The notes: a model not told the origin generated them from the sequence alone. A stretch of DNA of 64,000 bases from a virus (IMGVR_UViG_3300044831_000007:2518-66517), one strand, 5' to 3'; numbered from the stretch's first letter, positions 8,258 to 64,000 are shown. Numbers and translations are program-made.

Positions 8258-9568
8258 ATGGCCGGACTGATCAACGACGCTACGGGCGCCGCCTCGTTGC
8301 CGAACGTCTCGTATGCGGGCGTGGTCGGCGCAAACGCGACCAATGCGAATACGACGAACGCGGCCGCGACGAACGCGGCAGCGGCGAACGCCGGTTCGAC
8401 AGGCTACACGGGAGCGCAATCGCAAGCCGCGCAGATGCAGGCGAGCACCGGCACCGCCTCGACGGCGGGACTCGCTACAAACACGATTGATGATAACCAG
8501 ACCGTTGCCGGCCAGTTGAAGAGCCTGATTAGCGACAACAGTCCGCTGCTTCAGCAGGCTCGCTCGCAGGCGGTTCAGTCGGCGAACTCCCGTGGACTGG
8601 TGAACAGCTCGATGGCGCAGACCGCCGCTGACTCCGCGCTCTACAGCGCGGCCACGCCGATCGCGACCTCGGACGCGAACACGTATTTCCAGAACGGCAC
8701 GAACACCGCCGCTGCGACGAACCAGAACAGCCAGTACAACGCATCGAATGCACAGGACATGACGAAGACGAATCTCGGCTTCGAGAACACGGCTTCGCAA
8801 GTCAACGCGGCGAACCAGCAGCAAACGGGGCTCGCCAACCAGAACGCGACGAACGCCGCTTCGCAATTCACGGCGGGTGCATCGAACACGGCCGCGCTTC
8901 AAAACGCGAACAACCAGACCGACGTCTCGAAGACGAACGCGGCGCTTGGCACGGACGTGTCGAAGTCGAATGCGGCAGCGGCGAACACCACGAGTCAGTT
9001 CAACGCGACGCAGCAGAACCAGACCTCGCAGTTCAACGCCAGTTCGGCGAATCAGGCCTCGCAGTTCAACACGACGCAGGCGAACAACGCCTCGCTCGCG
9101 CAGATGGACGCGGACCTGAAAACCTACATGGATACGCAGGACAACGCCAACAAGGTCACGTTGCAGGCGATGGACGGCGCGACCAAGACGAATCTGGCCA
9201 ACATCCAAGCCCAGTATCAGCAACAACTGCAATCGTCTCAGTCGGCCTCCGACATCTACAAGACGATCGTCGGGAACATCAGCGGGATCATGACCAACAA
9301 GGACATGGACGCGGGCGCGAAGCAGGCGGCAGTCGATCAGCAGGTATCGATGCTCAAGGACGGCATGGCCGTGGCGCAAGCGGTGGGCACGCTGGACTTG
9401 ACCAGCATCCTGACTTTTGATGCTGGCGCGACAGCCCGTGCTAACGCGGCGGCTAATCCTCCGCCGCCTCCGCCTCCGCCTCCGCCTCAATATTACGGGT
9501 ACGGCCCGAACAACATGCAAAGCAACGGCTACGGTGGGGGCGGTGGTGGCGGTGGTGGCGGAGCCTAA
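8258..9568 (+). CDS. Putative internal virion/ejection protein (436 aa), Asn/Ala/Gln-rich
   Basis: Repetitive N/A/Q/T composition; ends in Pro9 and Gly10 tracts; first gene of the pre-giant-protein block. Confidence 0.55.
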   Translation: MAGLINDATGAASLPNVSYAGVVGANATNANTTNAAATNAAAANAGSTGYTGAQSQAAQMQASTGTASTAGLATNTIDDNQTVAGQLKSLISDNSPLLQQARSQAVQSANSRGLVNSSMAQTAADSALYSAATPIATSDANTYFQNGTNTAAATNQNSQYNASNAQDMTKTNLGFENTASQVNAANQQQTGLANQNATNAASQFTAGASNTAALQNANNQTDVSKTNAALGTDVSKSNAAAANTTSQFNATQQNQTSQFNASSANQASQFNTTQANNASLAQMDADLKTYMDTQDNANKVTLQAMDGATKTNLANIQAQYQQQLQSSQSASDIYKTIVGNISGIMTNKDMDAGAKQAAVDQQVSMLKDGMAVAQAVGTLDLTSILTFDAGATARANAAANPPPPPPPPPPQYYGYGPNNMQSNGYGGGGGGGGGGA

Positions 9569-9571
9569 GCC

Positions 9572-10027
9572 ATGACAATCACATTCGCCACTGAAACCGT
9601 CGCACAGGTGCGCGAGGACATCCTGCCGCTTCTCGATCTGCACTACGACGAGCTGACGCTGCATAAGGACGTGATGCAGCTCGCGCCCGATTGGCCGCGT
9701 TACGAGCTGCTGGAGGGGGTTGACAAGCTGCTGACGTTCACCGCGCGTGACGATGGCCAGCTCATCGGCTATTCGGTCTGGCTCGTAGACGCGCACCTTC
9801 ACTATGCGGGCACGCTGGTCGCAACGAACGATGTGATCTTCCTGCACAAAGACTATCGCCATGGCACGAGTGCCGGCCGCGACCTGATTGGCTACAGCGA
9901 GCAAATGCTGAAGTCGTTCGGTGTCGATAAAGCTATCTGGCACATCAAGTTTAAAAATGACTGGTCTGCAATCCTGCGTCGCCGTGGTTACGAGCGCGAG
10001 GATTTTACGATCGGGAAAATTCTTTAG
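9572..10027 (+). CDS. GNAT-fold acetyltransferase-like protein (151 aa)
   Basis: LLTFTARDDGQLIGYSVW...ATNDVIFLHKDYRHG...LIGYSEQMLKSFGV...ILRRRGY matches the GNAT pattern; such genes are common among podoviral ejection genes. Confidence 0.75.
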   Translation: MTITFATETVAQVREDILPLLDLHYDELTLHKDVMQLAPDWPRYELLEGVDKLLTFTARDDGQLIGYSVWLVDAHLHYAGTLVATNDVIFLHKDYRHGTSAGRDLIGYSEQMLKSFGVDKAIWHIKFKNDWSAILRRRGYEREDFTIGKIL

Positions 10028-27046: not shown

Positions 27047-27469
27047 TTACTGCGCCGTAAGGATCAAGAACTTATCGCGGTTCTTAGCGTCCTTGATCCA
27101 GCCCGGTGCATGGCCCATGCCGCTCCATGTCGCGCCGGTCTCAGGGTCCGCGTACTTCGCCGGCCGCGTGCCCTTATTCGTGGGCGCCGTCACGCCGTTG
27201 GCTGCGCCGTTGGTTTTCGCCTTGGCTTTCGGCTTGGCCTTGCCTGCGACGGCAGCTTTGATAGCCTTGGCCGTATATTTCTCGGGGAGTGGCTTTTTGG
27301 CGGGCTTGATAGTCACCTGACCATCGATCAAGTCTGCCGCTGTCACGCCGTACTCGGCCATGATGAGCTTGATCTGCGCCGCAGCGTGCTCGCGCAGCTC
27401 CGCGCGGGCAGTGTCTACCTTGGCCGTCAGCTCAGCTAATTGTTGCTCTAGGTCTGTCAGTGTCGTCAT
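27047..27469 (-). CDS. hns: H-NS-family nucleoid-associated protein (140 aa)
   Basis: N-terminal coiled coil; C-terminal PAKYADPETGATWSGMGHAPGWI, the H-NS DNA-binding motif; GAGG RBS. Confidence 0.88.
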   Translation of the reverse strand: MTTLTDLEQQLAELTAKVDTARAELREHAAAQIKLIMAEYGVTAADLIDGQVTIKPAKKPLPEKYTAKAIKAAVAGKAKPKAKAKTNGAANGVTAPTNKGTRPAKYADPETGATWSGMGHAPGWIKDAKNRDKFLILTAQ

Positions 27470-27648: not shown

Positions 27649-27834
27649 TTATCGAACTTTTTCGGCGTACTCCGTTGTCACGGTTATCTCGCCATATTGC
27701 GGATGATCGTAGACTCCAATGTACTCATCGCGAACCTTCACCAGCAGCTCGAATTCTGTGCCGGCAGGAACCGTCACGTCCGCGTCGTAAGCCGCCATGT
27801 ACACCAGATAAGGCTCTGTCAGTTTGGCTAGCAT
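27649..27834 (-). CDS. Hypothetical protein (61 aa)
   Basis: ATG 27834 abuts the previous stop; part of a tightly packed leftward operon. Confidence 0.55.
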   Translation of the reverse strand: MLAKLTEPYLVYMAAYDADVTVPAGTEFELLVKVRDEYIGVYDHPQYGEITVTTEYAEKVR

Positions 27835-27835
27835 G

Positions 27836-28093
27836 CTATCGCTTGCCGTGCAGGATGAAAACGCCCGGTGCCAGCGGCGTGATGTGCTCGTCATATTCGA
27901 TCGTGACGCGCACGCTTCTGCCGATCAGGGCATCAAAGTCCGGGTGCTCCTTCGCATCGCTCCAGCTTTGAATCCGCACGAACAAGCCCTCGTCCGTGTC
28001 GTCGCCGTCGATCTGGATAATCTTCGCGCATCCACCATCCTCCGTGTTCACGTCATCAGACGTAATCGTTTGCTCAAACGTGAATGTTTTCAT
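27836..28093 (-). CDS. Hypothetical protein (85 aa)
   Basis: ATGA coupling to the upstream gene. Confidence 0.7.
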   Translation of the reverse strand: MKTFTFEQTITSDDVNTEDGGCAKIIQIDGDDTDEGLFVRIQSWSDAKEHPDFDALIGRSVRVTIEYDEHITPLAPGVFILHGKR

Positions 28094-28356
28094 AATTCAG
28101 AGCCCTCAAGCATGCCTTCCGGTGGCCATGGCAAGCCGCGATACCGCGTCAGCCCGTGCTGCTCAAGCCAGTCCCGGCTTTCGTGCCTGTAGCTGTCGGG
28201 AATGCCCGTGCATTCATAGCGTGCCTTGTGGATCGATGCCAGCAAGACTTCCTCGCTAGATGGCTGCGGGCCATCTACCGCTAAATTGATTCGCCGAAAG
28301 TAGGCTAAATCCATTGCCATATACGCGCGGTTGCGCGCTTTAACAGCCTTGTTCAT
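28090..28356 (-). CDS. Hypothetical protein (88 aa)
   Basis: ATG 28356 forms an ATGA overlap with the upstream stop. Confidence 0.65.
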   Translation of the reverse strand: MNKAVKARNRAYMAMDLAYFRRINLAVDGPQPSSEEVLLASIHKARYECTGIPDSYRHESRDWLEQHGLTRYRGLPWPPEGMLEGSEL

Positions 28357-28622
28357 TTCGGGTCGTCTCCGTCGCGCCATGTGCGGCACTCGACAAGCCG
28401 CCTGTTATCGGTCCAGCACAAGATGCAGCAAAAATGCTCATCTCGGACAAGGCCCCCGGCCTCGTCGTCGCTGTACTCACAGACAGGGCACTGGAAGTGC
28501 CACCAGCCCCTTTTGTCCAGCTCGGCCAGCTCGCTAGTCATCCTAGCGAGCCGATCCTTGCGCATCTCGATATCGTCTTCGAGCGCGTCGATTTCCGCCA
28601 GCAGCCTTTCACGCTCGGTCAT
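28353..28622 (-). CDS. Small coiled-coil plus zinc-ribbon protein (89 aa)
   Basis: CPVC...CILC motifs. Confidence 0.7.
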   Translation of the reverse strand: MTERERLLAEIDALEDDIEMRKDRLARMTSELAELDKRGWWHFQCPVCEYSDDEAGGLVRDEHFCCILCWTDNRRLVECRTWRDGDDPK

Positions 28623-28821
28623 GCGCCTTCGCCTGCATGTCGGCCACGCGCTGCAACGCCGCCACGCTTTCGCGAAGCTTCACGCCAAGTGCTTCACCGC
28701 GCGCCATGATGGCGTCAAGCGCCTGTATCTCGTTTTGCAGCTCCGTTGTAGCGCGCACAAAGTCGTGCTGCGCATCAGAGATGTCGTACACCAGCTCGGC
28801 TCGCATTTCAGGCGTCATCAT
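28609..28821 (-). CDS. Hypothetical coiled-coil protein (70 aa)
   Basis: Operon packing; helical composition. Confidence 0.6.
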   Translation of the reverse strand: MMTPEMRAELVYDISDAQHDFVRATTELQNEIQALDAIMARGEALGVKLRESVAALQRVADMQAKAHDRA

Positions 28822-29077
28822 GTGAACTCCTTGTCAGGCGCCGCACCAGCGTGCCCTGTATCCGGTCGTGTTCGTGTTGCTGCTCGGCCGCGCGATCAAG
28901 CACGACTTGGCTTAGTTCTCGCGTGCGTTGCTCGGTCATCGCCAGTTGATGGCCTTCCTCCACGCCGTGCTTATACGCCAGATACACCGCGTCGTATATC
29001 TTCAGATGCCCGCCGGCCCTGAGCCACTTATTCTTTTCCCCCAATAGCCAATTCCAAACCTCTGCGACGGTTTTCAT
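28808..29077 (-). CDS. Hypothetical protein (89 aa)
   Basis: ATGA coupling, GGAGG RBS. Confidence 0.65.
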   Translation of the reverse strand: MKTVAEVWNWLLGEKNKWLRAGGHLKIYDAVYLAYKHGVEEGHQLAMTEQRTRELSQVVLDRAAEQQHEHDRIQGTLVRRLTRSSHDDA

Positions 29078-29298
29078 TTCAAGCCTCCGAACTTGTGGTG
29101 AATCGGCGCTGTCGTGGCGAGAAAGGCGTCCCGCTGTACCACGCTATAGCCCCGGTCTTTGAAACCCTGCTTCCCCTTGTACGGCATGTGCTTGGCGTCT
29201 TCCAAGAGCTTCGCCCACGCTTCTTCTGCCGTGTCGGCCGGGAGCCATGTAACGAGCGTGCCTCCGGGAGTCACGGGAAACCATTTCAGGAACATCAT
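29074..29298 (-). CDS. Hypothetical protein (74 aa)
   Basis: ATGA coupling. Confidence 0.65.
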   Translation of the reverse strand: MMFLKWFPVTPGGTLVTWLPADTAEEAWAKLLEDAKHMPYKGKQGFKDRGYSVVQRDAFLATTAPIHHKFGGLK

Positions 29299-29531
29299 CG
29301 CGCCTGCTGCGCGTCGAATTCGGCCAGTTGCTCGGGCGTCATCTGCCGTTTCAGACTGTCGCGGCCGGCGGCACAGCCAAGCAGGAGCATCGCTTCGGGC
29401 AGCGCGTTGAGCTGGCAGTCCAGAAAGGCGATCTGCTTCAGGTCACTGGCGCCCTTGCGCAGCGCCTCCAGCTCGTCGCCGAACTTGCTAAGAATGCGCC
29501 CTGCCGCGAGGCAGATTTCAGCGTCGGTCAT
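29295..29531 (-). CDS. Hypothetical protein (78 aa)
   Basis: AGGAG RBS. Confidence 0.65.
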   Translation of the reverse strand: MTDAEICLAAGRILSKFGDELEALRKGASDLKQIAFLDCQLNALPEAMLLLGCAAGRDSLKRQMTPEQLAEFDAQQAR

Positions 29532-29540
29532 TTTTGTCTC

Positions 29541-29867
29541 CTAGAAGTTTATGTACTCTTTACTCGCGTCGCCTTCGGGCCTACGCCTTCCGGTATCCGG
29601 GTGCCTGTGCCAGCCCTCGGGCTCGCCTTCTCCATCGCGCCCTATCCATTCGGCCATCGCTTCCATAGCCAGCCAAAGCCCGTCGAAACACCAGCGGTCG
29701 CCATACCCGCACCGGTCTATATCCGCGAGGATCGCGTAGTTAAACCCCATGCGCGTGATGCACGCATCGCGGCCGTTCGGAAATACCGTGTAGTCCGTGT
29801 AGTTGTTGGCCTCGCAGATCGCCAAGCCTCGCTCATAGGCTAAGCGTTCACGCTCTTCAACCTTCAT
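29541..29867 (-). CDS. Conserved-looking phage hypothetical protein (108 aa)
   Basis: GGAG RBS and ATGA overlap; GYGDRWCF...EPEGWHRHPDTGRRR motif. Confidence 0.7.
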   Translation of the reverse strand: MKVEERERLAYERGLAICEANNYTDYTVFPNGRDACITRMGFNYAILADIDRCGYGDRWCFDGLWLAMEAMAEWIGRDGEGEPEGWHRHPDTGRRRPEGDASKEYINF

Positions 29868-30151
29868 TTCGCTCTCCACTCGTCCTTGATCTGCCGCATG
29901 CGGCGTTCGTGCTCTTCCAATATGATCTTGCGCGCCTGCCGGAAGTCGAGCCAGTCACGCACCATGAGGGTGCCCGTGCGCGTAAGCCGGATGCCCGTCA
30001 GGAACGCAAACGGAACAAGCAGCGAATTGAACACTTGCAGCCACACCGGATGCTCGGAGAAGTGCCAGAGCTGATACAGGCAGTTGCCCGCAACGCTGAA
30101 CTCCAGCAGTGCGAACCCCACGACCAGCGCGAGCACGTATTGGACTTTCAT
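29864..30151 (-). CDS. Two-TM membrane protein (95 aa)
   Basis: Two hydrophobic segments and a charged C-terminus; ATGA coupling. Confidence 0.65.
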   Translation of the reverse strand: MKVQYVLALVVGFALLEFSVAGNCLYQLWHFSEHPVWLQVFNSLLVPFAFLTGIRLTRTGTLMVRDWLDFRQARKIILEEHERRMRQIKDEWRAK

Positions 30152-30723
30152 TCGGGCTTGGCCGGAAACAGGTGCTGCATGTGCGCGACGATTTCACGGC
30201 GCTCGCGCTCCATGCGCGCGTGCCCTGCCATGGCTTCATCAAAGGTCGCGTAGCGGTTCATATCCATCTCATCGCGCATCATCTCCTTGCGGCCGAACAT
30301 ATCCACTTCCCTCAAGGTCGCCGAGAACACCATGGATTCGAACAGGATCGGCGGACCCCCGAAGCTGTAGTTGTGATCGAGGCCCAGAAAGATGGTCGAT
30401 AGCCACGAGCCATCTTCGAAGTCCGTGCGCTTTTGAAAGCGGTTTTCGAACTCCGTGGTGGCCCAGCCGATCAGCTTGTCGCGGTTGATTGAGCCGTCCG
30501 GGTTCTCCGTGATAACCGGCGTGACGCTGTGATCGGGGTTCATCCGCCAGTGCAGCGGACGCTGCCGCAGGAACGCGCTAAAGGCCGGCTTCAGCTCGTC
30601 CATGACGGCCTTGGCCTTCACGGCTTTGCTAATGCGGATCAGCGTCGCGGCCATGTCGGCGTGCGCCAGCAGCGCGTACATGCTGCGCTCGCTCTGTGCC
30701 TGTGCGTGTTTAGCGACCTTCAA
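30148..30723 (-). CDS. Hypothetical protein (start uncertain; TTG 30723 preferred)
   Basis: STIFLGLDHNYSFGGPPILFESMVF motif; GGAG 8 nt before a TTG overlapping the upstream stop. Confidence 0.6.
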   Translation of the reverse strand: MKVAKHAQAQSERSMYALLAHADMAATLIRISKAVKAKAVMDELKPAFSAFLRQRPLHWRMNPDHSVTPVITENPDGSINRDKLIGWATTEFENRFQKRTDFEDGSWLSTIFLGLDHNYSFGGPPILFESMVFSATLREVDMFGRKEMMRDEMDMNRYATFDEAMAGHARMERERREIVAHMQHLFPAKPE

Positions 30724-30953
30724 AGCCACGTCTCCACAACGGAGGGGTGATCGACATCTGAGCGCATGAGGCACGTCAGTCCGGGATAATGCGTGGTGAT
30801 GAACGTCCGCGCCTCCTCCAGCGTCGCGCCGAAGAACGCGTGCTCGGTTGACTTATCCAGATAGAACAGCCGTGCCACGAAAAAATCGGGCGCGTCGTCT
30901 GGTCTCGCGAAGATAGTCCAGGCGCCCAGCTCGCCGGTTGGTGACACGATCAT
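30720..30953 (-). CDS. Hypothetical protein (77 aa)
   Basis: First ORF of the leftward small-gene block, after an AT-rich gap. Confidence 0.6.
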   Translation of the reverse strand: MIVSPTGELGAWTIFARPDDAPDFFVARLFYLDKSTEHAFFGATLEEARTFITTHYPGLTCLMRSDVDHPSVVETWL

Positions 30954-31163
30954 ATAGCGTTGGCGTTAAGGTATATCGTATTAACGGAGGATAGTCTACC
31001 GTGAATTAAAGGCAATATTTGCCTTAATGTCGCCGTGGGACCCACTGGGGCGCACCGCTTCGATGATGTCGCAATCCGTTAGCGCGTAAATATTATCCAG
31101 CTTGGCCGGTGGTTCCGACTGCTGTGATCGTGCGAGCAAATGGGTCGATCAGATATGCGCGCA

Positions 31164-32084
31164 TTACGTTCCTCCAGTAAATGGTAGAGACTTCTGTCCG
31201 CCGTTTGTGCGCTGCACGCTGACTAAATCACCTTCACCTAGTTGCCAGCTCGCGATGAACCCGACTTCGACTAGCGAGTCGAGTGCCTTGCGGAGTTGCT
31301 GCCGGAACGATGGCAAGCTCTTCTGCCGGCTTCCCGTGTACTCTCGCAACGTCGCTACCTTGAGCGCGTAAGGTTTTTCATGCGTCGCATAGAACGCGTG
31401 AAGCCACCGCGCCAAGGGGTTCAATCGGGCGCGCATCATGTAATCGATTAGCGTAACCGCGTCGCCGGCCATGAGCCCCGCGATCTTGGTATTCAGATAG
31501 ATGTTCCATGGCAAGGAAGGGCTGCTGTCGTCTACCACGTCGATCGTGTGTATCAAGTGAGCACCGTAGACCGGGCGCCATGTGTTACCCCGCTTCCCTG
31601 CTCGTTCGATATAGCGCTCCACGATCACCGTACCAGTGAGAAGTCGCCAGTACGATTGCCGCAAGCGTTCGTAGCAGGCGCCCTCACGTGGCCAGCCCAG
31701 CCCGTCGAGCGCGTCGTTGCCAATGACCGTCAGTACCGTCTCTAGGTCGTCGTCCTTGGCCATGTGGCAAAGCTGCATAAAGACATCTAGGTCTTCCTGT
31801 CTAAGCTCCTGCCCGGTATATGTGATCCGCATATTCTGGATCGTTGCGATCGGCTGCTTGTCATACATCACTCGCGGCGTCTTCATGTCTGCAACTTGGA
31901 ACAAGGCACTGCGCGTTAGGTCTTTTGAGATACCGCGCATGGTGTCTGTCCATGCCTTCATCTGTAGACGCTTCGGCAGTACCTCGACTTCATCATTTCC
32001 CTCTTCCTGCTCGGCCTGTGCGGTCGCTGCTCGCTCTCTATTTTCTTGGAGCCTTTGCAGGGCCATTTGTATGTTCGCGTCCAC
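31164..32084 (-). CDS. trfA: TrfA-family plasmid replication initiator (306 aa; GTG start)
   Basis: RSALFQV, ITYTGQELRQEDLDVF, LARWLHAFYATHEKPYALKVATLREYTGS and FRQQLRKALDSL match the TrfA family pattern. AGGAG RBS before GTG 32084; the track start at 32150 translates the iterons. Confidence 0.85.
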   Translation of the reverse strand: MDANIQMALQRLQENRERAATAQAEQEEGNDEVEVLPKRLQMKAWTDTMRGISKDLTRSALFQVADMKTPRVMYDKQPIATIQNMRITYTGQELRQEDLDVFMQLCHMAKDDDLETVLTVIGNDALDGLGWPREGACYERLRQSYWRLLTGTVIVERYIERAGKRGNTWRPVYGAHLIHTIDVVDDSSPSLPWNIYLNTKIAGLMAGDAVTLIDYMMRARLNPLARWLHAFYATHEKPYALKVATLREYTGSRQKSLPSFRQQLRKALDSLVEVGFIASWQLGEGDLVSVQRTNGGQKSLPFTGGT

Positions 32085-32093
32085 GCTCTCTCC

Positions 32094-32102
32094 TGTGGAT
32101 AA
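32094..32102 (-). promoter_or_regulatory. DnaA box (perfect TTATCCACA on the minus strand)
   Basis: TGTGGATAA on the plus strand, left of the iterons. Confidence 0.75.
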
Positions 32103-32115
32103 ATGGGTTAACCCT

Positions 32116-32195
32116 GAGTGAAACTGCATATGTCTAGAGTGAAACTGCATACGGTTCTGAGTGAAACTGCATACGGTTCTGAGTGAAACTGCATA
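32116..32195. repeat. Four iterons GAGTGAAACTGCATA (plasmid oriV)
   Basis: Exact 15-mers at 32116, 32137, 32159 and 32181 (period 21-22 bp), directly upstream of trfA. Confidence 0.92.
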
Positions 32196-32260
32196 TGTCG
32201 TACCATTGCTTTCCCCAGCATTAACAGAGACTTAGGATCACTTTTAGCGGGTGCTAAGCC

Positions 32261-32283
32261 TTTCTTTAAGCTTTTCTTTAAGC
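32261..32283. repeat. AT-rich direct repeat TTTCTTTAAGC x2 (candidate unwinding element)
   Basis: 11-mers at 32261 and 32273, between the iterons and the second DnaA box. Confidence 0.55.
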
Positions 32284-32300
32284 GTAAACCGTTCTCAGCC

Positions 32301-32309
32301 TGTGGATAA
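32301..32309 (-). promoter_or_regulatory. DnaA box (perfect TTATCCACA on the minus strand)
   Basis: TGTGGATAA on the plus strand, right of the AT-rich region. Confidence 0.75.
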
Positions 32310-32344
32310 CCGAAAAACCAAAAAGCAGTTTTGCAAAGGGGTGG

Positions 32345-32713
32345 TCATTTCAGTTCCGTGGTGAAAGCCGTGCGTTCGTATGCTTCGAGCGCATAGGCAC
32401 GCAGTTCGTTATCGTCAAGCGTCTTCGCGATCGCCCACAAGGCAGACCGGGCTGCGCTCAATTGCCGTCCGACCTCGTTGTGGCCTTTCTCACGCCCTGC
32501 CGCAAACCCGGCCTTAGCTCCAGCTTCCAAGGGCAGTCCTTCCCCTCTCTCGGCTTTCTCAACGCCCCATGGTCCGCCGCTCAATTGCCACGCTGCCGCG
32601 TCGATCGCCTGCTGCTTGGCCTCCGCTCTCGCGATGACTATGACGCGCTCATCGGTCTCCGAGTTGCGAAAGGTGATGGACCAGAGGGGTTGAATGTACG
32701 GTTGTTCGGTCAT
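32345..32713 (-). CDS. Hypothetical protein in the partition operon (122 aa)
   Basis: GGAGA RBS; 2 nt after the stop of the RHH gene. Confidence 0.65.
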   Translation of the reverse strand: MTEQPYIQPLWSITFRNSETDERVIVIARAEAKQQAIDAAAWQLSGGPWGVEKAERGEGLPLEAGAKAGFAAGREKGHNEVGRQLSAARSALWAIAKTLDDNELRAYALEAYERTAFTTELK

Positions 32714-32715
32714 GA

Positions 32716-33150
32716 TCAGTGGTTCTCCTTCACTTCGGTTTCACGCTTGCGGATCGCTTCGATACGGGCGTTTAGACCCTGCTCCAGAATCTCGATCGCG
32801 ATCCCGTGCAGGCTGTTGCGCCCAAGCGAGTGCTCGGTCACGTAGACCAGTTTCGCGTGCAGCGGTGCCTTGGCGCGCATGGTGAAGTGCGCCGGAATCC
32901 TTGGATCAGCGGCGTCCCACGGTAGCACTTCAACCGCTTTATCGGGTTTTGCCTTACCCTCGGATACCTTCGCGGTGCGTTTACGGGCTACTGGCGGGCT
33001 TGCTGGGGGTTCGGAGGTAGTTTGTGTCGTCTTCTCCCCTTCCGGCGGCGCCACGGGCTGATTCTGTGCATCGCCCGATCCGTCGTCTTCCGCTTTGGCG
33101 AGGAACTTCAGCCTTTTCTGCTCTTGCAGGGCTTCTTTCAGGTCGCTCAT
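32716..33150 (-). CDS. Putative type Ib centromere-binding protein (ParG/omega-like ribbon-helix-helix, 144 aa)
   Basis: ATGA-coupled to parA; disordered N-terminal part, then AHFTMRAKAPLHAKLVYVTEHSLGRNSLHGIAIEILEQGL (strand-helix-helix pattern). Confidence 0.65.
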   Translation of the reverse strand: MSDLKEALQEQKRLKFLAKAEDDGSGDAQNQPVAPPEGEKTTQTTSEPPASPPVARKRTAKVSEGKAKPDKAVEVLPWDAADPRIPAHFTMRAKAPLHAKLVYVTEHSLGRNSLHGIAIEILEQGLNARIEAIRKRETEVKENH

Positions 33151-33809
33151 TGCCAGACCTCGTGCGCCAACTCCACGATTTCGCGACGGGCGTCGGCGTG
33201 TCGAAGGCCCCTTGCGAACTCAACGACCGACTGCCCTTTCTCTGCCACGCGCATATAAATCCGCCGATGAATTATCTGGGTGTTCATCATCGTGAAAGTC
33301 GGCATCTCCGATAACTCTGAGCGCACGTCTTGCGCCGCAGAGTCACCCCGGTAGTGAGGCGAACACTCGTTCAAAAGGATGAACGCCTGGAGTTTCGGGT
33401 TGATTATGCGGGCTTCTTCGACCGCATCTGCCACATCGATCGCCGTAGCGCTGTCGAAAAGAGATGGCTTGATTGGCATGATTATCTTGTCGGCGATCAA
33501 CATTGCCTCACGCATCTCGCGGTTCAGCGCTTCCGATCCGCGTGTATCCAGCACGATATCGTCGTAGTCCGGCGCGAAGTCCATCACGCACTTGCCGGCG
33601 CCCTTCCCTAGTTGCGTCATGAAATGCAGCTTCACGGCATTCGGCGCGTGCTTGCCACGCTGCTGATACCAAACCCGCAGACTCCCCTGTTTGTCCATAT
33701 CCACGATCAGCACCTTGCGGTTCATCGCGGCGCGGACCTGCGCGACTTGGCACGCGTGCGTGGTTTTCCCCGTGCCGCCCTTCGCTGAAGCAAAAGCAAT
33801 GATGGCCAT
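33147..33809 (-). CDS. parA: ParA-family partition ATPase, short type Ib (220 aa)
   Basis: Deviant Walker A KGGTGKTT; LIVDMDKQGS; IVLDT; ADKIIMPIKPSLFD; no N-terminal HTH. Confidence 0.92.
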   Translation of the reverse strand: MAIIAFASAKGGTGKTTHACQVAQVRAAMNRKVLIVDMDKQGSLRVWYQQRGKHAPNAVKLHFMTQLGKGAGKCVMDFAPDYDDIVLDTRGSEALNREMREAMLIADKIIMPIKPSLFDSATAIDVADAVEEARIINPKLQAFILLNECSPHYRGDSAAQDVRSELSEMPTFTMMNTQIIHRRIYMRVAEKGQSVVEFARGLRHADARREIVELAHEVWQ

Positions 33810-33833
33810 GTCATCTCCCCTTAACGAGTTAAC

Positions 33834-33982
33834 ATCATGTGATGTGACGGCAGCTCATGTCAAGCGAGGTGAGGTGATTCGATACAAGGTGACGTGTGGT
33901 GATGTCACCTGATACTGTGTGATGTGGTGTGAATTGGTATGGAGTGAGGTGAGTCGATCTGAGGTGATGTGATATCACATCA
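33834..33982. repeat. 5-bp-period GTGA array, candidate partition centromere and parA operator
   Basis: 12 GTGA copies all start at positions equal to 4 mod 5; the intervening slots hold variants (GTCA, GCGA, CTGA, GTGG, TCGA). Confidence 0.8.
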
Positions 33983-34039
33983 TGCTGAAAGCAGTTTGTA
34001 ATGCAGCTCGATCATTTGTGTGAAGATTGGACAACATCT

Positions 34040-35149
34040 ATGAGCACACTCGACAATTTCATGGCGTTCCTTGATTCTTTGCAAGGCAAAGACGGCAAAG
34101 ACGGCAAGGACGGCAAAGACGGCAAAGACGGTAAAGACGGCAAGCCCTATGACGCGCGTGCGCTGGTCAATGATCCGCGCTTGGCGCCGGGCTTGAAGCT
34201 GTATTACGGCGTGAATGGGCATTGGGATTATCCGGGGACGAGCTCGGCGCCGGCACAGATCATCGCGAAGATGAAAACTATGGGCATGACGGTGTATCGG
34301 GCCACATGGGAAGGCTCCGACGCCTCGTTAGCCGTTTTGCTCGCGTTGGCGCAGGCGTTCCAAGCCGATGGCACTGGATTGAGCCTGTACGTGTGCCTGA
34401 ACGTGAGTCTGACGTCTGACGGTACGAACTTGTGGGGGTCGGAGGCGCTTGCGTACAGTTACGCGTTTGCCGCAGGCCAGCACGTCGCGGCGGTGTTGCA
34501 GCCGGCGGGCGTGGTGATGTACGAGTGCGGCAACGAATTGACGCGCAAGGCCGGCATGACGGGGATTTATCCGGCCATCCAGGGCACGATCGCGGGCGAT
34601 TTTAACAATGCGATGTGGGCGATTTTGCGCGGGGTGACGACCGGCGTCTTTGACGGGGTGAAGTCTTACCAGTGCAATGCGATTTGTGCGAGTAACGCGT
34701 GGGTGTTTTCCGAGTACGCCGCTGCCGAAATGCTATGGACCGGTACGAGTCCCGATGGCTCGGGCGGGCATCGGGCCTTGAAGTGGGACGTAACGGCGTT
34801 GCACAGTTATCACAACTGGGGCAACCCGATGAAAACGTATTACGACGGTCCGGGCGTCGGGCCGACCTTCGACTATCTCGCGCGCATGACGCAGTTTGGC
34901 CGTCCTATCGTGATCAGTGAATTCAATGGGGACGCGGGCGCGATGAGCGATGCGGCCATGTCGGCGTGGGTGTTGCAGATGTATACGCAGTGGTACGCGA
35001 TTCGCCGCCGCTACAACATCGCCTCGGTGATGCTGTATGCGCTGTACAACGCGGACTATCCGTGGGGGTGTTTGAATCAGGACGGCACGATTATCCAGAG
35101 CCTCGGGCAGACGGTGCACGATTTTATTGTCGCCAACCCGGATGACTGA
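34040..35149 (+). CDS. Clan GH-A-like glycoside hydrolase with N-terminal collagen-like (GKD)6 repeat (369 aa)
   Basis: GKD x6 at 34085-34138; YECGNEL (acid/base) and VISEFN (nucleophile) motifs; ALHSYH; lone rightward gene in a leftward region. Confidence 0.7.
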   Translation: MSTLDNFMAFLDSLQGKDGKDGKDGKDGKDGKDGKPYDARALVNDPRLAPGLKLYYGVNGHWDYPGTSSAPAQIIAKMKTMGMTVYRATWEGSDASLAVLLALAQAFQADGTGLSLYVCLNVSLTSDGTNLWGSEALAYSYAFAAGQHVAAVLQPAGVVMYECGNELTRKAGMTGIYPAIQGTIAGDFNNAMWAILRGVTTGVFDGVKSYQCNAICASNAWVFSEYAAAEMLWTGTSPDGSGGHRALKWDVTALHSYHNWGNPMKTYYDGPGVGPTFDYLARMTQFGRPIVISEFNGDAGAMSDAAMSAWVLQMYTQWYAIRRRYNIASVMLYALYNADYPWGCLNQDGTIIQSLGQTVHDFIVANPDD

Positions 35150-41398: not shown

Positions 41399-42031
41399 TT
41401 ACTGAGACTTAAACCAGTGGGCCGGCGTGACTTTGGCAATCTCGAAGCCTTCGATTTCTGTCCGAATTCCGGGGTTAATCAGGCGGAATCTGCCGGGTTC
41501 ATGTGGGCGCGAAAGCACGCCGAACAAACGTTTGCGGTCGATCGTCTCGACTAATGAGAGCTTGCCCCAGCACTTCGATTCATCGAATTGTCCGGGCTCA
41601 AAGTAGACGATCGTGCCGTCCCAGAAGCCTCCCACTGCTGCCGCCGAGCGCACTTGCAGAGCAAAGCCATTGGCCGCAAAGCCAGGAGGGACGGGGGCTC
41701 GCATCACGGGGGCGTTAGCTTCTTCGACGTTGAAGTCGTCATAGGCGTAGAGCAGGACGGGCGCGGTTGGCTGATCTGACTCGGGCACCTCATAGCCCCA
41801 GCGTCGCATCACCTCAGTAATAGGGACATCTAGCACGCCGGCTATTTTTATCGCGTCCGAGACTTTCAGCTCGCGCGAGCCGTTGACCGCGTATGAGAGC
41901 GTCACGGGATCGACTCCCATGCGTCCTGCCATCTGAGCTTGCGAGAGTTCCTTTCGCGCGAGCTGGGCGGTGAACCAGTGTTTGTCTGGCGTTCGTTCTG
42001 TCCCTTTCCTATCACTTTTTGCGTTGTCCAC
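41399..42031 (-). CDS. CI-like repressor (XRE HTH plus S24-like C-terminal domain, 210 aa)
   Basis: LSQAQMAGRMGVDPVTLSYAVNGSRELKVSDAIKIAGVL HTH; divergent from a small HTH gene; GGAG RBS. Confidence 0.8.
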   Translation of the reverse strand: MDNAKSDRKGTERTPDKHWFTAQLARKELSQAQMAGRMGVDPVTLSYAVNGSRELKVSDAIKIAGVLDVPITEVMRRWGYEVPESDQPTAPVLLYAYDDFNVEEANAPVMRAPVPPGFAANGFALQVRSAAAVGGFWDGTIVYFEPGQFDESKCWGKLSLVETIDRKRLFGVLSRPHEPGRFRLINPGIRTEIEGFEIAKVTPAHWFKSQ

Positions 42032-42137
42032 GGGCCTTACTCCAATTGTTATATGTGATGAAAAATGTGTATATTCGAGACCTGCCGGCCTTACGTTAAG
42101 CCGTTAAGATTTTACCTCAACACGTCCGCCCTTAACA

Positions 42138-42449
42138 ATGCCCACTCGCAAAACCATGCCTGCCAACACTCCCCCGATTCTGGGAAGCCAGCCTCTTGAT
42201 GCGCTGCTCGTGAATACCGCTGAGCCCGCGTATTCGATCATCAAGAAATGCGGCGGTGTGCGTCCTCTCGCACGCGCCTTATCCATCTCGCCAGCGGCGG
42301 TGACGCGCTGGCAAAAGCACCGCACGCCGACCGACAAACGGGGGTGCGATGGTGTCATTCCTGAGTTCCGCCGTTCGACAGTCATTGCGGTCGCCCGTGA
42401 ATTGGGCAAACGCGTGACCAAGGCTGAGTTTCTGAAGACTCAAGCGTAA
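42138..42449 (+). CDS. Cro-like HTH regulator (103 aa)
   Basis: IIKKCGGVRPLARALSISPAAVTRWQ...GVIPE; divergent from cI. Confidence 0.75.
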   Translation: MPTRKTMPANTPPILGSQPLDALLVNTAEPAYSIIKKCGGVRPLARALSISPAAVTRWQKHRTPTDKRGCDGVIPEFRRSTVIAVARELGKRVTKAEFLKTQA

Positions 42450-51569: not shown

Positions 51570-52568
51570 TCAGACCGTCAGCAGTTGAGCGGCGCGGGTC
51601 TTCAACTTGTCACCGTTGCCAAACCAAGCGCTATCGGTGCGGTTGTCGTCAGACCGGGCGCGAATATGGTGGTCAACGTACTCCGTAACGCTGTTGAGCA
51701 GTCCCCAGCGTGTGCCCCGTACACCGTCGAGCGTCGCGCCCTTACCTTGGCCATTGAACAGCCCCATGATCGTCTCAAACCCGGTTGTCTTGCGGGTCTC
51801 TTCGATCACTGCGGCGGTTGCCTTGTCCCAATCCTTGGCGGTCAAAATCTCGAAAACGAATTGCTCGGCGCTGTCATGTCCGCAGGGTTCGGCAGCTAAC
51901 AGGCGGGCCGTCTTGGCCCAATCGCTGAAACCATCGCGGGCAATGCCAAGTTGGTCTTTCAGCGCTTCGGGATCGAAGATTGAGCGGTGCGAAACTTTCA
52001 CGGACGTGCGGCCGTCTGACTCGCGAAAAGCCATTGCGATGGTATTGGCGCATACCACGCGCTCCGTTACGTATTTGCCTTCCGTCGCGCGGGAGCCGTC
52101 GCAAGCTGTCGAGATGAGCAAAAACGGCGCTACTGCGTCCGCCTTGTTACGGATGATTGCATCGGGACCAATGCGGGCCATGGCCCAATAGACGCGGCCT
52201 TCCTTGAGTACACCTGCGGTTTCGAGCTGGAACCCGGCGCGGTCTGACAGGTCGCGGAACGTCTCGATTACTTGGCGGGGCTGGACAATGTTGAAGCGGT
52301 CGGAAACGACAGCGAGGGGCAATTTCGTGTCTGACCGAAAGATGACAACCTGACCGGGCATTTCGCGGAACGCATCCGGCGTCATGCCGTGCGCCGTGGC
52401 ATAGCGCACTTTCCCGCGTTGCAGCTCGTAGGCCATGTGTGCTTTGGTCTGGATCACTTCGAGCGAGTCGCCGGCGAAAATTTCCTGCCCTTTGTCGTGC
52501 CAACCTTTCGCGCCGCGATAGGCGAAACCATAGGTGCCGTCTGCGGCTTGTGCGAGTTCGTGTGCCAT
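51570..52568 (-). CDS. DUF932 / TIGR03299-type phage-plasmid protein (332 aa)
   Basis: AYRGAKGWHDKG, VVSDRFNIVQP, LETAGVLKEGR, LISTACDGS, VVCANT, WGLLNSVTEYVDH. Confidence 0.85.
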   Translation of the reverse strand: MAHELAQAADGTYGFAYRGAKGWHDKGQEIFAGDSLEVIQTKAHMAYELQRGKVRYATAHGMTPDAFREMPGQVVIFRSDTKLPLAVVSDRFNIVQPRQVIETFRDLSDRAGFQLETAGVLKEGRVYWAMARIGPDAIIRNKADAVAPFLLISTACDGSRATEGKYVTERVVCANTIAMAFRESDGRTSVKVSHRSIFDPEALKDQLGIARDGFSDWAKTARLLAAEPCGHDSAEQFVFEILTAKDWDKATAAVIEETRKTTGFETIMGLFNGQGKGATLDGVRGTRWGLLNSVTEYVDHHIRARSDDNRTDSAWFGNGDKLKTRAAQLLTV

Positions 52569-62791: not shown

Positions 62792-64000
62792 ATGCCCACA
62801 ATCGTACTCACCACGGGCACAACTTGGACCGTGGTGTCGGATTGGAACAATTCGAATAACACCATCGAAGTCTGGGGTGCGGGCGGCGGCGCTGGCGGTG
62901 ACGGCTCATTTGGTTCGGGCGGTGGCGGCGGCGGTGCGTGGTCAAGGATCGCGAACCTCGCGCTCACCCCCGGCGCATCGATCAACATCCGCATCGGCGC
63001 GGCCGGCGGCAGCTTCGACGGCAGCAACGGCACAGTGGGCGGCGATAGCTGGTTCAACGGCACCACGGTATCGAACGCATCCGTGTCCGCGAAGGGCGGT
63101 GGCGGTGGCGGCTTCGGCCCCAGCTCGCCGGGTACGGCAGGCGCCGGCGGCACGACAGCCGGTGTAGGCACGACGAAGTTCGCGGGCGGCGCCGGCGGCA
63201 TCGGCGGCTCGAACGGTAACGGCGGCGCAGGCGGCGGTGGCGGTGGTGCGGCTGGCCCCGCCGGCGCGGGCGGAGTTGGCGCCAACCCGAACAACGCCAC
63301 GTTTAACGGTGCTAACGGTGGCGCGGGTAACAACGGCGCGAACGCGGGCGGTACAGGCTCGACCGCTCAGGGCGTCCCAGGCGGCACGGGTGTCTCGCAG
63401 GCGAATGGCGGCGGTGGTGGTGGTGGCGGCTCAAACATAGACGTCAACTCAATCGGCCTCGGCGGTAATGCTGGCCTTCCGGGCGGCGGCGCAGGCGGCG
63501 GTGGCAATACTCAGTGGTCGCTGGGCGGCACAGCGGGCACGGGCCAGATTCGCATCACGTACACCGTGGCGTCCACCACGGGCACGCTGGCCCCGACGCT
63601 CGCCGGCGTAACGGCGGCGATCGCAGGCGTGATCCTCAACCCGGTCACGGGCACGCTGTCGCCGACGCTGGGCAATGCCGTGGCGAACGGCTTCACCGGC
63701 ACACTGGAATTCAGTGGGTCGATGGCGCAGACACTTCAGGCAGTCACGCAAGCGGCAAGCGGTGGGCTCACGATCAGCGGCTTTCTCGGTGGCTACCTCG
63801 ACTCATCGGTCAGTGCGATACCGGCCAAGCAAACCTTCAGTGGCACGATGGCGCCGATCACGCTGGGCGCCGCGACGATGAACGCGAGCGGGAACCAGCC
63901 GGTTTTCGGCACGTTCTCCCAGACCCTTGGGAACGCAATCGCTGCAATGGCCGGCAACGAGTTGTTTACCGGCACGCTGGCCAAGACGCTGGCCAACCAC
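62792..64000 (+). CDS. Glycine-rich virion protein, 3' end outside the window (absent from the ORF track)
   Basis: GGAGG RBS; reads MPTIVLTTGTTWTVVSDWNNSNNTIEVWGAGGGAGG...; same frame is open to ...GNELFTGTLAKTLANH at the window end; TGTL(A/S)PTL repeats. Confidence 0.75.
   Translation, partial: MPTIVLTTGTTWTVVSDWNNSNNTIEVWGAGGGAGGDGSFGSGGGGGGAWSRIANLALTPGASINIRIGAAGGSFDGSNGTVGGDSWFNGTTVSNASVSAKGGGGGGFGPSSPGTAGAGGTTAGVGTTKFAGGAGGIGGSNGNGGAGGGGGGAAGPAGAGGVGANPNNATFNGANGGAGNNGANAGGTGSTAQGVPGGTGVSQANGGGGGGGGSNIDVNSIGLGGNAGLPGGGAGGGGNTQWSLGGTAGTGQIRITYTVASTTGTLAPTLAGVTAAIAGVILNPVTGTLSPTLGNAVANGFTGTLEFSGSMAQTLQAVTQAASGGLTISGFLGGYLDSSVSAIPAKQTFSGTMAPITLGAATMNASGNQPVFGTFSQTLGNAIAAMAGNELFTGTLAKTLANH

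Follow-up and report, generated by a model that had tools for sequence, protein, structure and literature searches.

At positions 31164 to 33982 of a 64,000-nucleotide stretch of viral DNA (hereafter the window), a gene for a TrfA-family replication initiator, an iteron-bearing origin, a three-gene partition operon and an array of short repeats lie side by side. The window comprises bases 2518-66517 of one 66,517-bp IMG/VR virus record (IMGVR_UViG_3300044831_000007; GC content, 60%), which we refer to as G000 where it has to be told apart from two related IMG/VR records, G001 and G002. A first-pass annotation had described it as a podovirus-like phage carrying a complete RK2-style plasmid replicon and a type Ib partition system, and had proposed it as a candidate phage-plasmid.

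The initiator gene, trfA, occupies 31164..32084 on the minus strand. Its longest open reading frame (ORF), 31164-32150 (minus strand), matched the Pfam family TrfA (PF07042) with an E value of 6.7e-25 and 88.2 bits, against a curated cut-off of 22, and the alignment spanned profile positions 37-281 of 282 (245 positions). The identification of a TrfA-like initiator in the first-pass annotation was thereby confirmed. The ATG at 32150 that opens the longest ORF falls within the second iteron of the origin; translation probably starts at GTG 32084, with a strong Shine-Dalgarno sequence (AGGAGAGAG) 5 nt upstream, or at ATG 32066, the start used in the database protein P0001. A consensus promoter scan detected no trfA promoter. 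TrfA homologues with more than 50% identity are rare, with five clusters among 5.8 billion proteins, and P0003-P0005 are encoded on short contigs. Single-protein pattern scans for TrfA gave zero matches in viral and genome contigs, and alignment-based scans succeeded.

Beside trfA, four exact copies of the 15-mer GAGTGAAACTGCATA start at 32116, 32137, 32159 and 32181 (32116..32195; spacing of 21, 22 and 22 bp), and no further copy with up to 3 mismatches was found in the window. By analogy with related replicons, these iterons are presumed to be the TrfA binding sites, and they probably overlap the trfA promoter. They are flanked by two perfect DnaA boxes (TTATCCACA), both on the minus strand. 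Box 1 (32094..32102) abuts the trfA ribosome-binding site and has an equivalent in G001 and G002, and box 2 (32301..32309) lies at the far edge of the origin. These are the only perfect copies in the 64 kb, where about 0.5 would be expected by chance over both strands, and each is embedded, in the same orientation, in an 11-nt repeat, CCTGTGGATAA. A tandem pair of 12-mers, TAAGCCTTTCTT / TAAGCTTTTCTT (32255..32278), forms the most AT-rich part of the origin (61% AT) and is a candidate DNA-unwinding element. Its motif, GCTTAAAGAAA-N-GCTTA, is shared by G001 and G002, and the origin of a Burkholderia glumae plasmid contains a similar one. The origin stretch as a whole (32094-32344) has an AT content of 57%, versus 40% for the window, and the local GC minimum lies here. 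Thus, the four 15-bp iterons at a 21-22 bp period beside the initiator, which proved unique in the window, and the two DnaA boxes at 32094 and 32301 were as the first-pass annotation had given them, whereas its AT-rich 11-mer pair turned out to be a pair of 12-mers of just moderate AT-richness.

The partition operon lies on the minus strand. Its first gene, parA (33147..33809), encodes a short Walker-type partition ATPase of type Ib (220 aa) that matched Pfam families AAA_31, CbiA and MipZ as well as the ParA-like phrog_164 (E value of 2.5e-31), with its whole length covered. The protein has a deviant Walker A motif (KGGTGKT, residues 10-16) and no N-terminal DNA-binding domain, and its closest phage homologues, at about 29% identity, are those of phiHAP-1, D6, VP882 and Zymomonas elements. 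The second gene (32716..33150) overlaps parA by 4 nt, which fits translational coupling of the two, and is separated by a gap of 2 nt from the third, orf122 (32345..32713). The latter is not kept in G001, had no match in Pfam or PHROG and gave no usable lead in the protein atlas.

The product of the second gene, 144 aa long, is a ParG-like putative centromere binder. It had no match in Pfam, ParG included, and belongs to a family of 37 representatives whose profile matches the Mnt repressor with an E value of 0.006. In the AlphaFold model (predicted local distance difference test score [pLDDT], 82), a helix at the N-terminus is followed by a disordered linker and, at residues 85-144, by a strand-helix-helix unit. 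VIA-align of this unit returned almost only ribbon-helix-helix (RHH) proteins (Z scores of 5.0-6.4; root-mean-square deviation, 1.2-2 Å), among them the centromere binders pCXC100 ParB and omega; such Z scores are too low to decide alone, and the argument is the consistency of the match list. A Foldseek search of the model against the PDB gave no significant match. Co-folding of ParA with the RHH protein gave a weak signal: ipSAE was 0.56 versus 0.00 for the best control, the partner had a pLDDT of at least 59, and at least 54% of contacts agreed between runs. Of 80 solved complexes, 58 attained the pass mark, as did 2 of 110 mismatched pairs; only 7 of these 80 did so with a score of 0.60 or less, and so did both mismatches.

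Upstream of parA, an array of 12 GTGA tetramers, mostly arranged as GTGAnGTGA doublets (33834..33982), is a candidate centromere and operator. All 12 boxes share one phase of a 5-bp lattice, GTGA density is about 20 times that of the window, and a promoter-like sequence within the array, TTGACA-18-CATGAT, is directed into parA. The short parA coupled to an RHH-like gene and the upstream repeat array reported in the first-pass annotation were therefore recovered, and its type Ib reading agrees with the short ParA, the deviant Walker A motif and the RHH partner gene. In Logan contigs from both the source run and an independent soil run, position 33959 is followed by an extra TGAGG, one unit of the 5-bp lattice, suggesting either that the length of the array varies by whole lattice units or that the IMG assembly dropped one unit. 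The intergenic space of the array also holds the start region of the gene at 34001-35149, the only one on the plus strand from the par operon to the leftward early genes; its product has a collagen-like N-terminus of GKD repeats.

The module is located in a leftward early gene block, between genes for an exonuclease and a single-stranded DNA-binding protein (SSB) and polA, of a record that CheckV rates as 100% complete. The record encodes virion and packaging proteins (TerS, TerL, portal, major head protein, and tail and fibre proteins), lysis proteins (endolysin and a spanin-like protein), a giant protein of 3326 aa, PolA, a primase, a helicase, the exonuclease and the gp2.5-like SSB; many of its other genes have no annotation. 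TerL has its best GenBank phage match, 51%, in Xylella phage Xfas53 of the P22-like group, and the best such match of the portal is 38%. At the DNA level, blastn of the region from 30 to 36 kb gave no match in the GenBank phage collection and a single 158-bp match, at chance level, among PLSDB plasmids. Sequence composition showed nothing suggestive of recent acquisition other than the lower GC content at the origin. The full virion, packaging and lysis set thus shares one replicon with TrfA, the origin and the par operon, the combination that characterizes a phage-plasmid.

The topology label of the record in IMG/VR is "linear," yet its initial 146 bases align with its final 147 at 96%, and collapsing this overlap yields a single glycine-rich, repeat-bearing, tail-fibre-like ORF that crosses the junction (window 62792-64000 plus L092:3-497). 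The end overlap and the ORF spanning the junction indicate a circular map without host flanks, which answers the question of circularity raised in the first-pass annotation; the "linear" label is probably an assembly artifact at an intragenic repeat. Temperate growth is suggested by a gene for a cI-like repressor (41399-42031, minus strand; Pfam HTH_3) that is divergent from a cro-like gene (42138-42449, plus strand), the two pairing as a lysis-lysogeny switch (41399..42449) that is kept in G001. A six-frame search of the whole 66,517-bp record found no tyrosine integrase (PF00589), serine recombinase (PF00239) or rve transposase (PF00665), and no protelomerase-type or Cre-type function was seen. 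The lack of an integrase, noted earlier for the window, thus extends to the 2.5 kb outside it, where there is no host flank either. Neither tRNA genes nor Rfam families were detected in the window, and an antisense RNA for copy control was accordingly not identified. All data on the element come from soil metagenomes, with near-identical DNA in soil runs of separate studies, and no RNA run is among the sequencing runs listed as carrying it.

The sister phage G001, a 64,483-bp record from a different metagenome (CheckV completeness, 100%), has 38 of 78 genes in common with G000, with identities of 78% for TerL, 80% for PolA and 76% for the exonuclease. Its trfA, 57% identical, occupies the same place between the same flanking phage genes, which are themselves 65-80% identical, and its origin has the same order: a DnaA-type box, a pair of GCTTAAAGAAA-type motifs, iterons, a DnaA-type box and then trfA. 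There are three to four iterons with a period of 21-22 bp, and their sequence differs from that in G000. In contrast, the two ParAs (G001 L081:8120-8758 versus G000 33147-33809) are only 25% identical and the partner in G001 is a different RHH-like protein, indicating that the partition cassette was exchanged while the replicon was retained. G002 (L082; 62,905 bp; CheckV completeness, 100%) is a distant relative, with a portal 29% and a capsid 35% identical. Its module includes a TrfA (43% identity) and a divergent parA, and its origin has the same motif pair, a perfect DnaA box and six iterons that repeat at the period seen in G000, with a third sequence. Both relatives retain the same full phage gene set, both lack a tyrosine integrase (PF00589), and the ends of both contigs overlap too, at different genes. 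The iteron sequences differ among the three phages, as do their TrfAs: all start with TAT-N-C and the remaining ten bases differ, as co-evolution of the iteron's specificity half with the initiator would predict. A small palindromic motif (32318..32340; minus-strand reading, TTGCAAAACTGCTTTTTGG) is present in all three phages and may be a protein binding site. In the form TTGCAAAACTG(C/G)TTTTT, it lies at L081 ~9150-9172 in G001, just after the RHH gene, and at L082 ~9620-9645 in G002, and it adjoins the origin in G000 and G002.

Among plasmids in PLSDB, the best TrfA matches (42-44%) are on circular plasmids of B. glumae (42%), B. gladioli and Burkholderia sp. In a maximum-likelihood tree, a group of G000 and G001 and a group of G002 and two Burkholderia plasmids were united with support of 100/99, and G002 was closer to the Burkholderia plasmids (99/95) than to G000. 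The TrfA of R751 formed a remote long branch (28% identity over 256 residues; E value of 1e-23). The label "RK2-style" of the first-pass annotation therefore holds at the level of the TrfA family and no further, as 28% identity to R751 compares with 42-44% to the Burkholderia plasmids and the partition genes are not of the IncC/KorB kind. By its sequence, the module is a Burkholderia-plasmid-type replicon. A scan for the portal in 185,579 species genomes gave a best match of 45% in a betaproteobacterial metagenome-assembled genome, the rest being integrated prophages at about 35% or less; no close relative was found and hence no isolate able to show the plasmid state. The TrfA clade, the best portal match and the soil origin of the metagenome make a soil-dwelling member of the Burkholderiales the probable host.

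The co-occurrence of a cI/cro switch and a full virion set with a plasmid-type replicon and a par operon, in a record without a recognizable integrase, is the signature of a phage-plasmid. We consider it likely that the element, a tailed and apparently podovirus-like phage, is temperate and that its prophage persists as a circular low-copy plasmid without integrating. Drawing on characterized relatives, we infer the plasmid state, autonomous replication and each binding step of the following scheme, as well as the split between plasmid and lytic replication. As in RK2-type systems, TrfA would bind the four iterons and host DnaA the two flanking boxes; the two proteins would then melt the 12-mer region and bring in the helicase and polymerase of the host, as happens on TrfA-family plasmids. 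Iteron binding beside the trfA start would autoregulate trfA and limit copy number. Segregation of the copies would be ensured by the parA/RHH/orf122 operon: as in TP228-type systems, the RHH protein would coat the GTGA array, serving as both centromere and operator, and so autoregulate the operon, while its N-terminal part would stimulate the ParA ATPase. The cI-like repressor would silence the lytic genes. After induction, the phage primase, helicase, PolA, SSB and exonuclease would take over, and a P22-type headful terminase would package the DNA. The mechanism itself is conventional.

Several observations weigh against this interpretation. All relatives are metagenomic, and no lysogen, isolate or long read shows the plasmid form. 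The circular map would be equally expected from headful-packaged, circularly permuted virion DNA. The cI-like protein matches just a helix-turn-helix domain in Pfam, so temperate growth itself is something that we infer. The candidate unwinding region is only about 60% AT, TrfA might also, or solely, fire lytic theta replication, and the unannotated genes could include an unrecognized recombinase. Low-copy plasmids usually carry a multimer-resolution recombinase or a toxin-antitoxin pair; neither was seen here, a host XerCD site not having been searched for. Accordingly, "complete," as the first-pass annotation had called the replicon and partition system, is generous with respect to multimer resolution.

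Because the module lies within the leftward early block, between the exonuclease/SSB genes and polA, and no other initiator was identified for the phage replisome, TrfA and the iterons could constitute the phage's own origin, driving early lytic theta replication much as lambda O does at ori-lambda, instead of maintaining a prophage, with ParA serving another purpose or a transient carrier state. Lambda-type origins likewise combine iterons with an AT-rich stretch. We regard this explanation as unlikely, since it leaves a par operon with its own promoter and centromere array unexplained, and since the DnaA boxes and the gene order match the basic replicons of real plasmids and the cI/cro switch occurs without any integrase. 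The two functions are compatible, however; in N15, one Rep protein serves both modes. It is also conceivable that the element is a plasmid carrying a defective or domesticated prophage that no longer makes infectious virions, given that it is known from sequence alone. The intact packaging, portal, capsid, tail-fibre, lysis and replication genes in a compact, CheckV-complete record, the retention of the full gene set by two diverged relatives and the near-identical DNA in soil runs of separate studies make this very unlikely.

A slightly lower probability still is assigned to integration through an unrecognized recombinase or host functions, in which case the phage would carry the rep/par module as cargo or as a relic acquired from a Burkholderia plasmid. 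The many unannotated genes leave room for such a recombinase, and the par cassettes that differ between G000 and G001 speak for recent module exchange. However, trfA and the origin are intact and have kept their position, the iterons differ between phages as the TrfAs do, PF00589 is absent from three complete records, and neither a host flank nor a tRNA is present. As for an assembly chimera of phage and plasmid, Logan unitigs of the source run do break at the iterons (32166) and within parA (~33515-33542), and the unitig between these breaks has a depth of 5.8 versus about 9.8 for both flanks. Yet G001, from another metagenome, is syntenic, its trfA and origin being flanked by the same phage genes, other unitigs bridge the phage genes to trfA (27812-32166) and parA to the phage genes (33515-37689), and near-identical pieces of the module and its flanks are found in a soil run of another study. 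These three results rule out a chimeric assembly for practical purposes. The low-depth unitig (32166-33542) includes one half of the origin and runs through orf122 and the RHH gene into parA; its depth may stem from the presence in the sample of another allele of the partition segment, a possibility in line with the cassette swap between G000 and G001.

Some further genes of these phages deserve mention. Downstream of trfA, an H-NS-like protein is encoded at 27047-27469 (minus strand), with a C-terminal H-NS domain (E value of 4e-9) and homologues in G001 and G002; it may have a role in silencing or plasmid stealth. A DUF932 protein (E value of 7e-51), of a family common on plasmids and conjugative elements, is encoded in the early region (51570-52568, minus strand), and G001 has one too. 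In G002, a DUF927 primase-helicase-like protein (976 aa) is encoded beside the module, and SLT and Rz lysis genes lie upstream.

We then searched for TrfA in known phages, using the proteins of G000, G002 and R751 as queries, and found none in 50,697 GenBank phage records; in the literature searched, no paper linked TrfA to a phage-plasmid. These results are consistent with the suggestion in the first-pass annotation that the pairing is absent from the well-known phage-plasmid groups. TrfA-like proteins are already present in phage and prophage collections as PHROG 26900, and further TrfA-bearing contigs exist in IMG/VR. The lifestyle is known, and the replicon type, a TrfA/iteron system from the clade of Burkholderia plasmids, is one not yet seen in isolated or deposited phages. 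The element adds a new soil phage backbone, and the TrfA tree provides direct evidence of one replicon pool common to phages and plasmids. More tentatively, with somewhat less than even confidence, we propose that G000, G001 and G002 represent unrecognized soil podovirus-like phage-plasmids of Burkholderiales that draw their replicons from the TrfA pool of conjugative and mobilizable Burkholderia plasmids, so that incompatibility and host range would be coupled and cassettes swapped between phages and plasmids, with the GTGA lattice as a new RHH centromere architecture. If the 3-kb module replicates and segregates alone, it would offer a compact vector backbone for Burkholderiales, and incompatibility would be predicted between the phage and resident TrfA plasmids.

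Phage-plasmids in which an iteron Rep protein is combined with a ParA system are well established. Phage-plasmids act as a route for genes between phages and plasmids, and most of the groups catalogued so far are from enterobacteria, Vibrio, Acinetobacter, Bacillus and mycobacteria; cluster A mycobacteriophages that lack an integrase carry parABS. P1, N15, SSU5, the VP882/phiHAP-1 group and D6 are temperate phages in which a plasmid Rep and/or partition system replaces the integrase (Pfeifer et al. 2021, PMC7969092), and the main text of that study does not mention TrfA. The phage described here would share its type of lifestyle with the known phage-plasmids, some of which (phiHAP-1, D6 and VP882) encode, along with the Zymomonas elements, its nearest phage ParAs; it differs from them in having no DNA similarity to GenBank phages over 30-36 kb and in its TrfA replicon.

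With respect to partition, the type Ib systems (ParF-ParG-parH of TP228, the RHH ParB of pCXC100 and delta-omega of pSM19035) likewise combine a short Walker-type ParA with a small partner that has a flexible N-terminus and a C-terminal RHH domain, and with upstream repeated boxes that double as operator, a role for which the GTGA array is a candidate. Unlike these systems, the phage has a partner that does not match ParG in Pfam and an operon that includes a third gene, orf122, and its GTGA boxes follow a 5-bp lattice, in place of ACTC boxes with 4-bp spacers.

The layout of the RK2 oriV, with iterons, DnaA boxes and an AT-rich region served by TrfA, recurs here: the IncP-1 plasmids (RK2/RP4 and R751) share with the phage the initiator family, direct iterons repeating about every 22 bp and DnaA boxes, and their AT-rich repeat region has a candidate counterpart of moderate AT content in the phage. 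In R751, however, trfA is part of an ssb-trfA operon away from the origin and beside the Kor regulon, whereas the phage trfA abuts the origin; TrfA has 407 aa in R751 and 300-306 aa, without the long N-terminus, in the phage; and partition relies on ParA and ParB/KorB in R751 and on a ParA/RHH pair of the ParF/ParG type in the phage. An IncP-1 replicon in the strict sense was rejected on the grounds of the 28% TrfA identity, the position of trfA and the absence of an adjacent ParA/ParB(KorB)/KorA set. The closest counterparts are Burkholderia plasmids such as B. glumae p947s3p (NZ_CP100190.1) and Burkholderia sp. PAMC 26561 unnamed5 (NZ_CP014312.1). Their replicons belong to plasmids that are conjugative or mobilizable and lack virion genes, and the B. 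glumae origin has more than 12 iterons of another sequence and ACTC-type boxes near parA, with no GTGA lattice. In contrast, their gene order is the same as in the phage, parA, a small partner (ParG in the plasmids), oriV and trfA making up the basic replicon, and their origins resemble that of the phage in combining one or more DnaA-type boxes, a AAAGGCTTAG-type motif and direct iterons.

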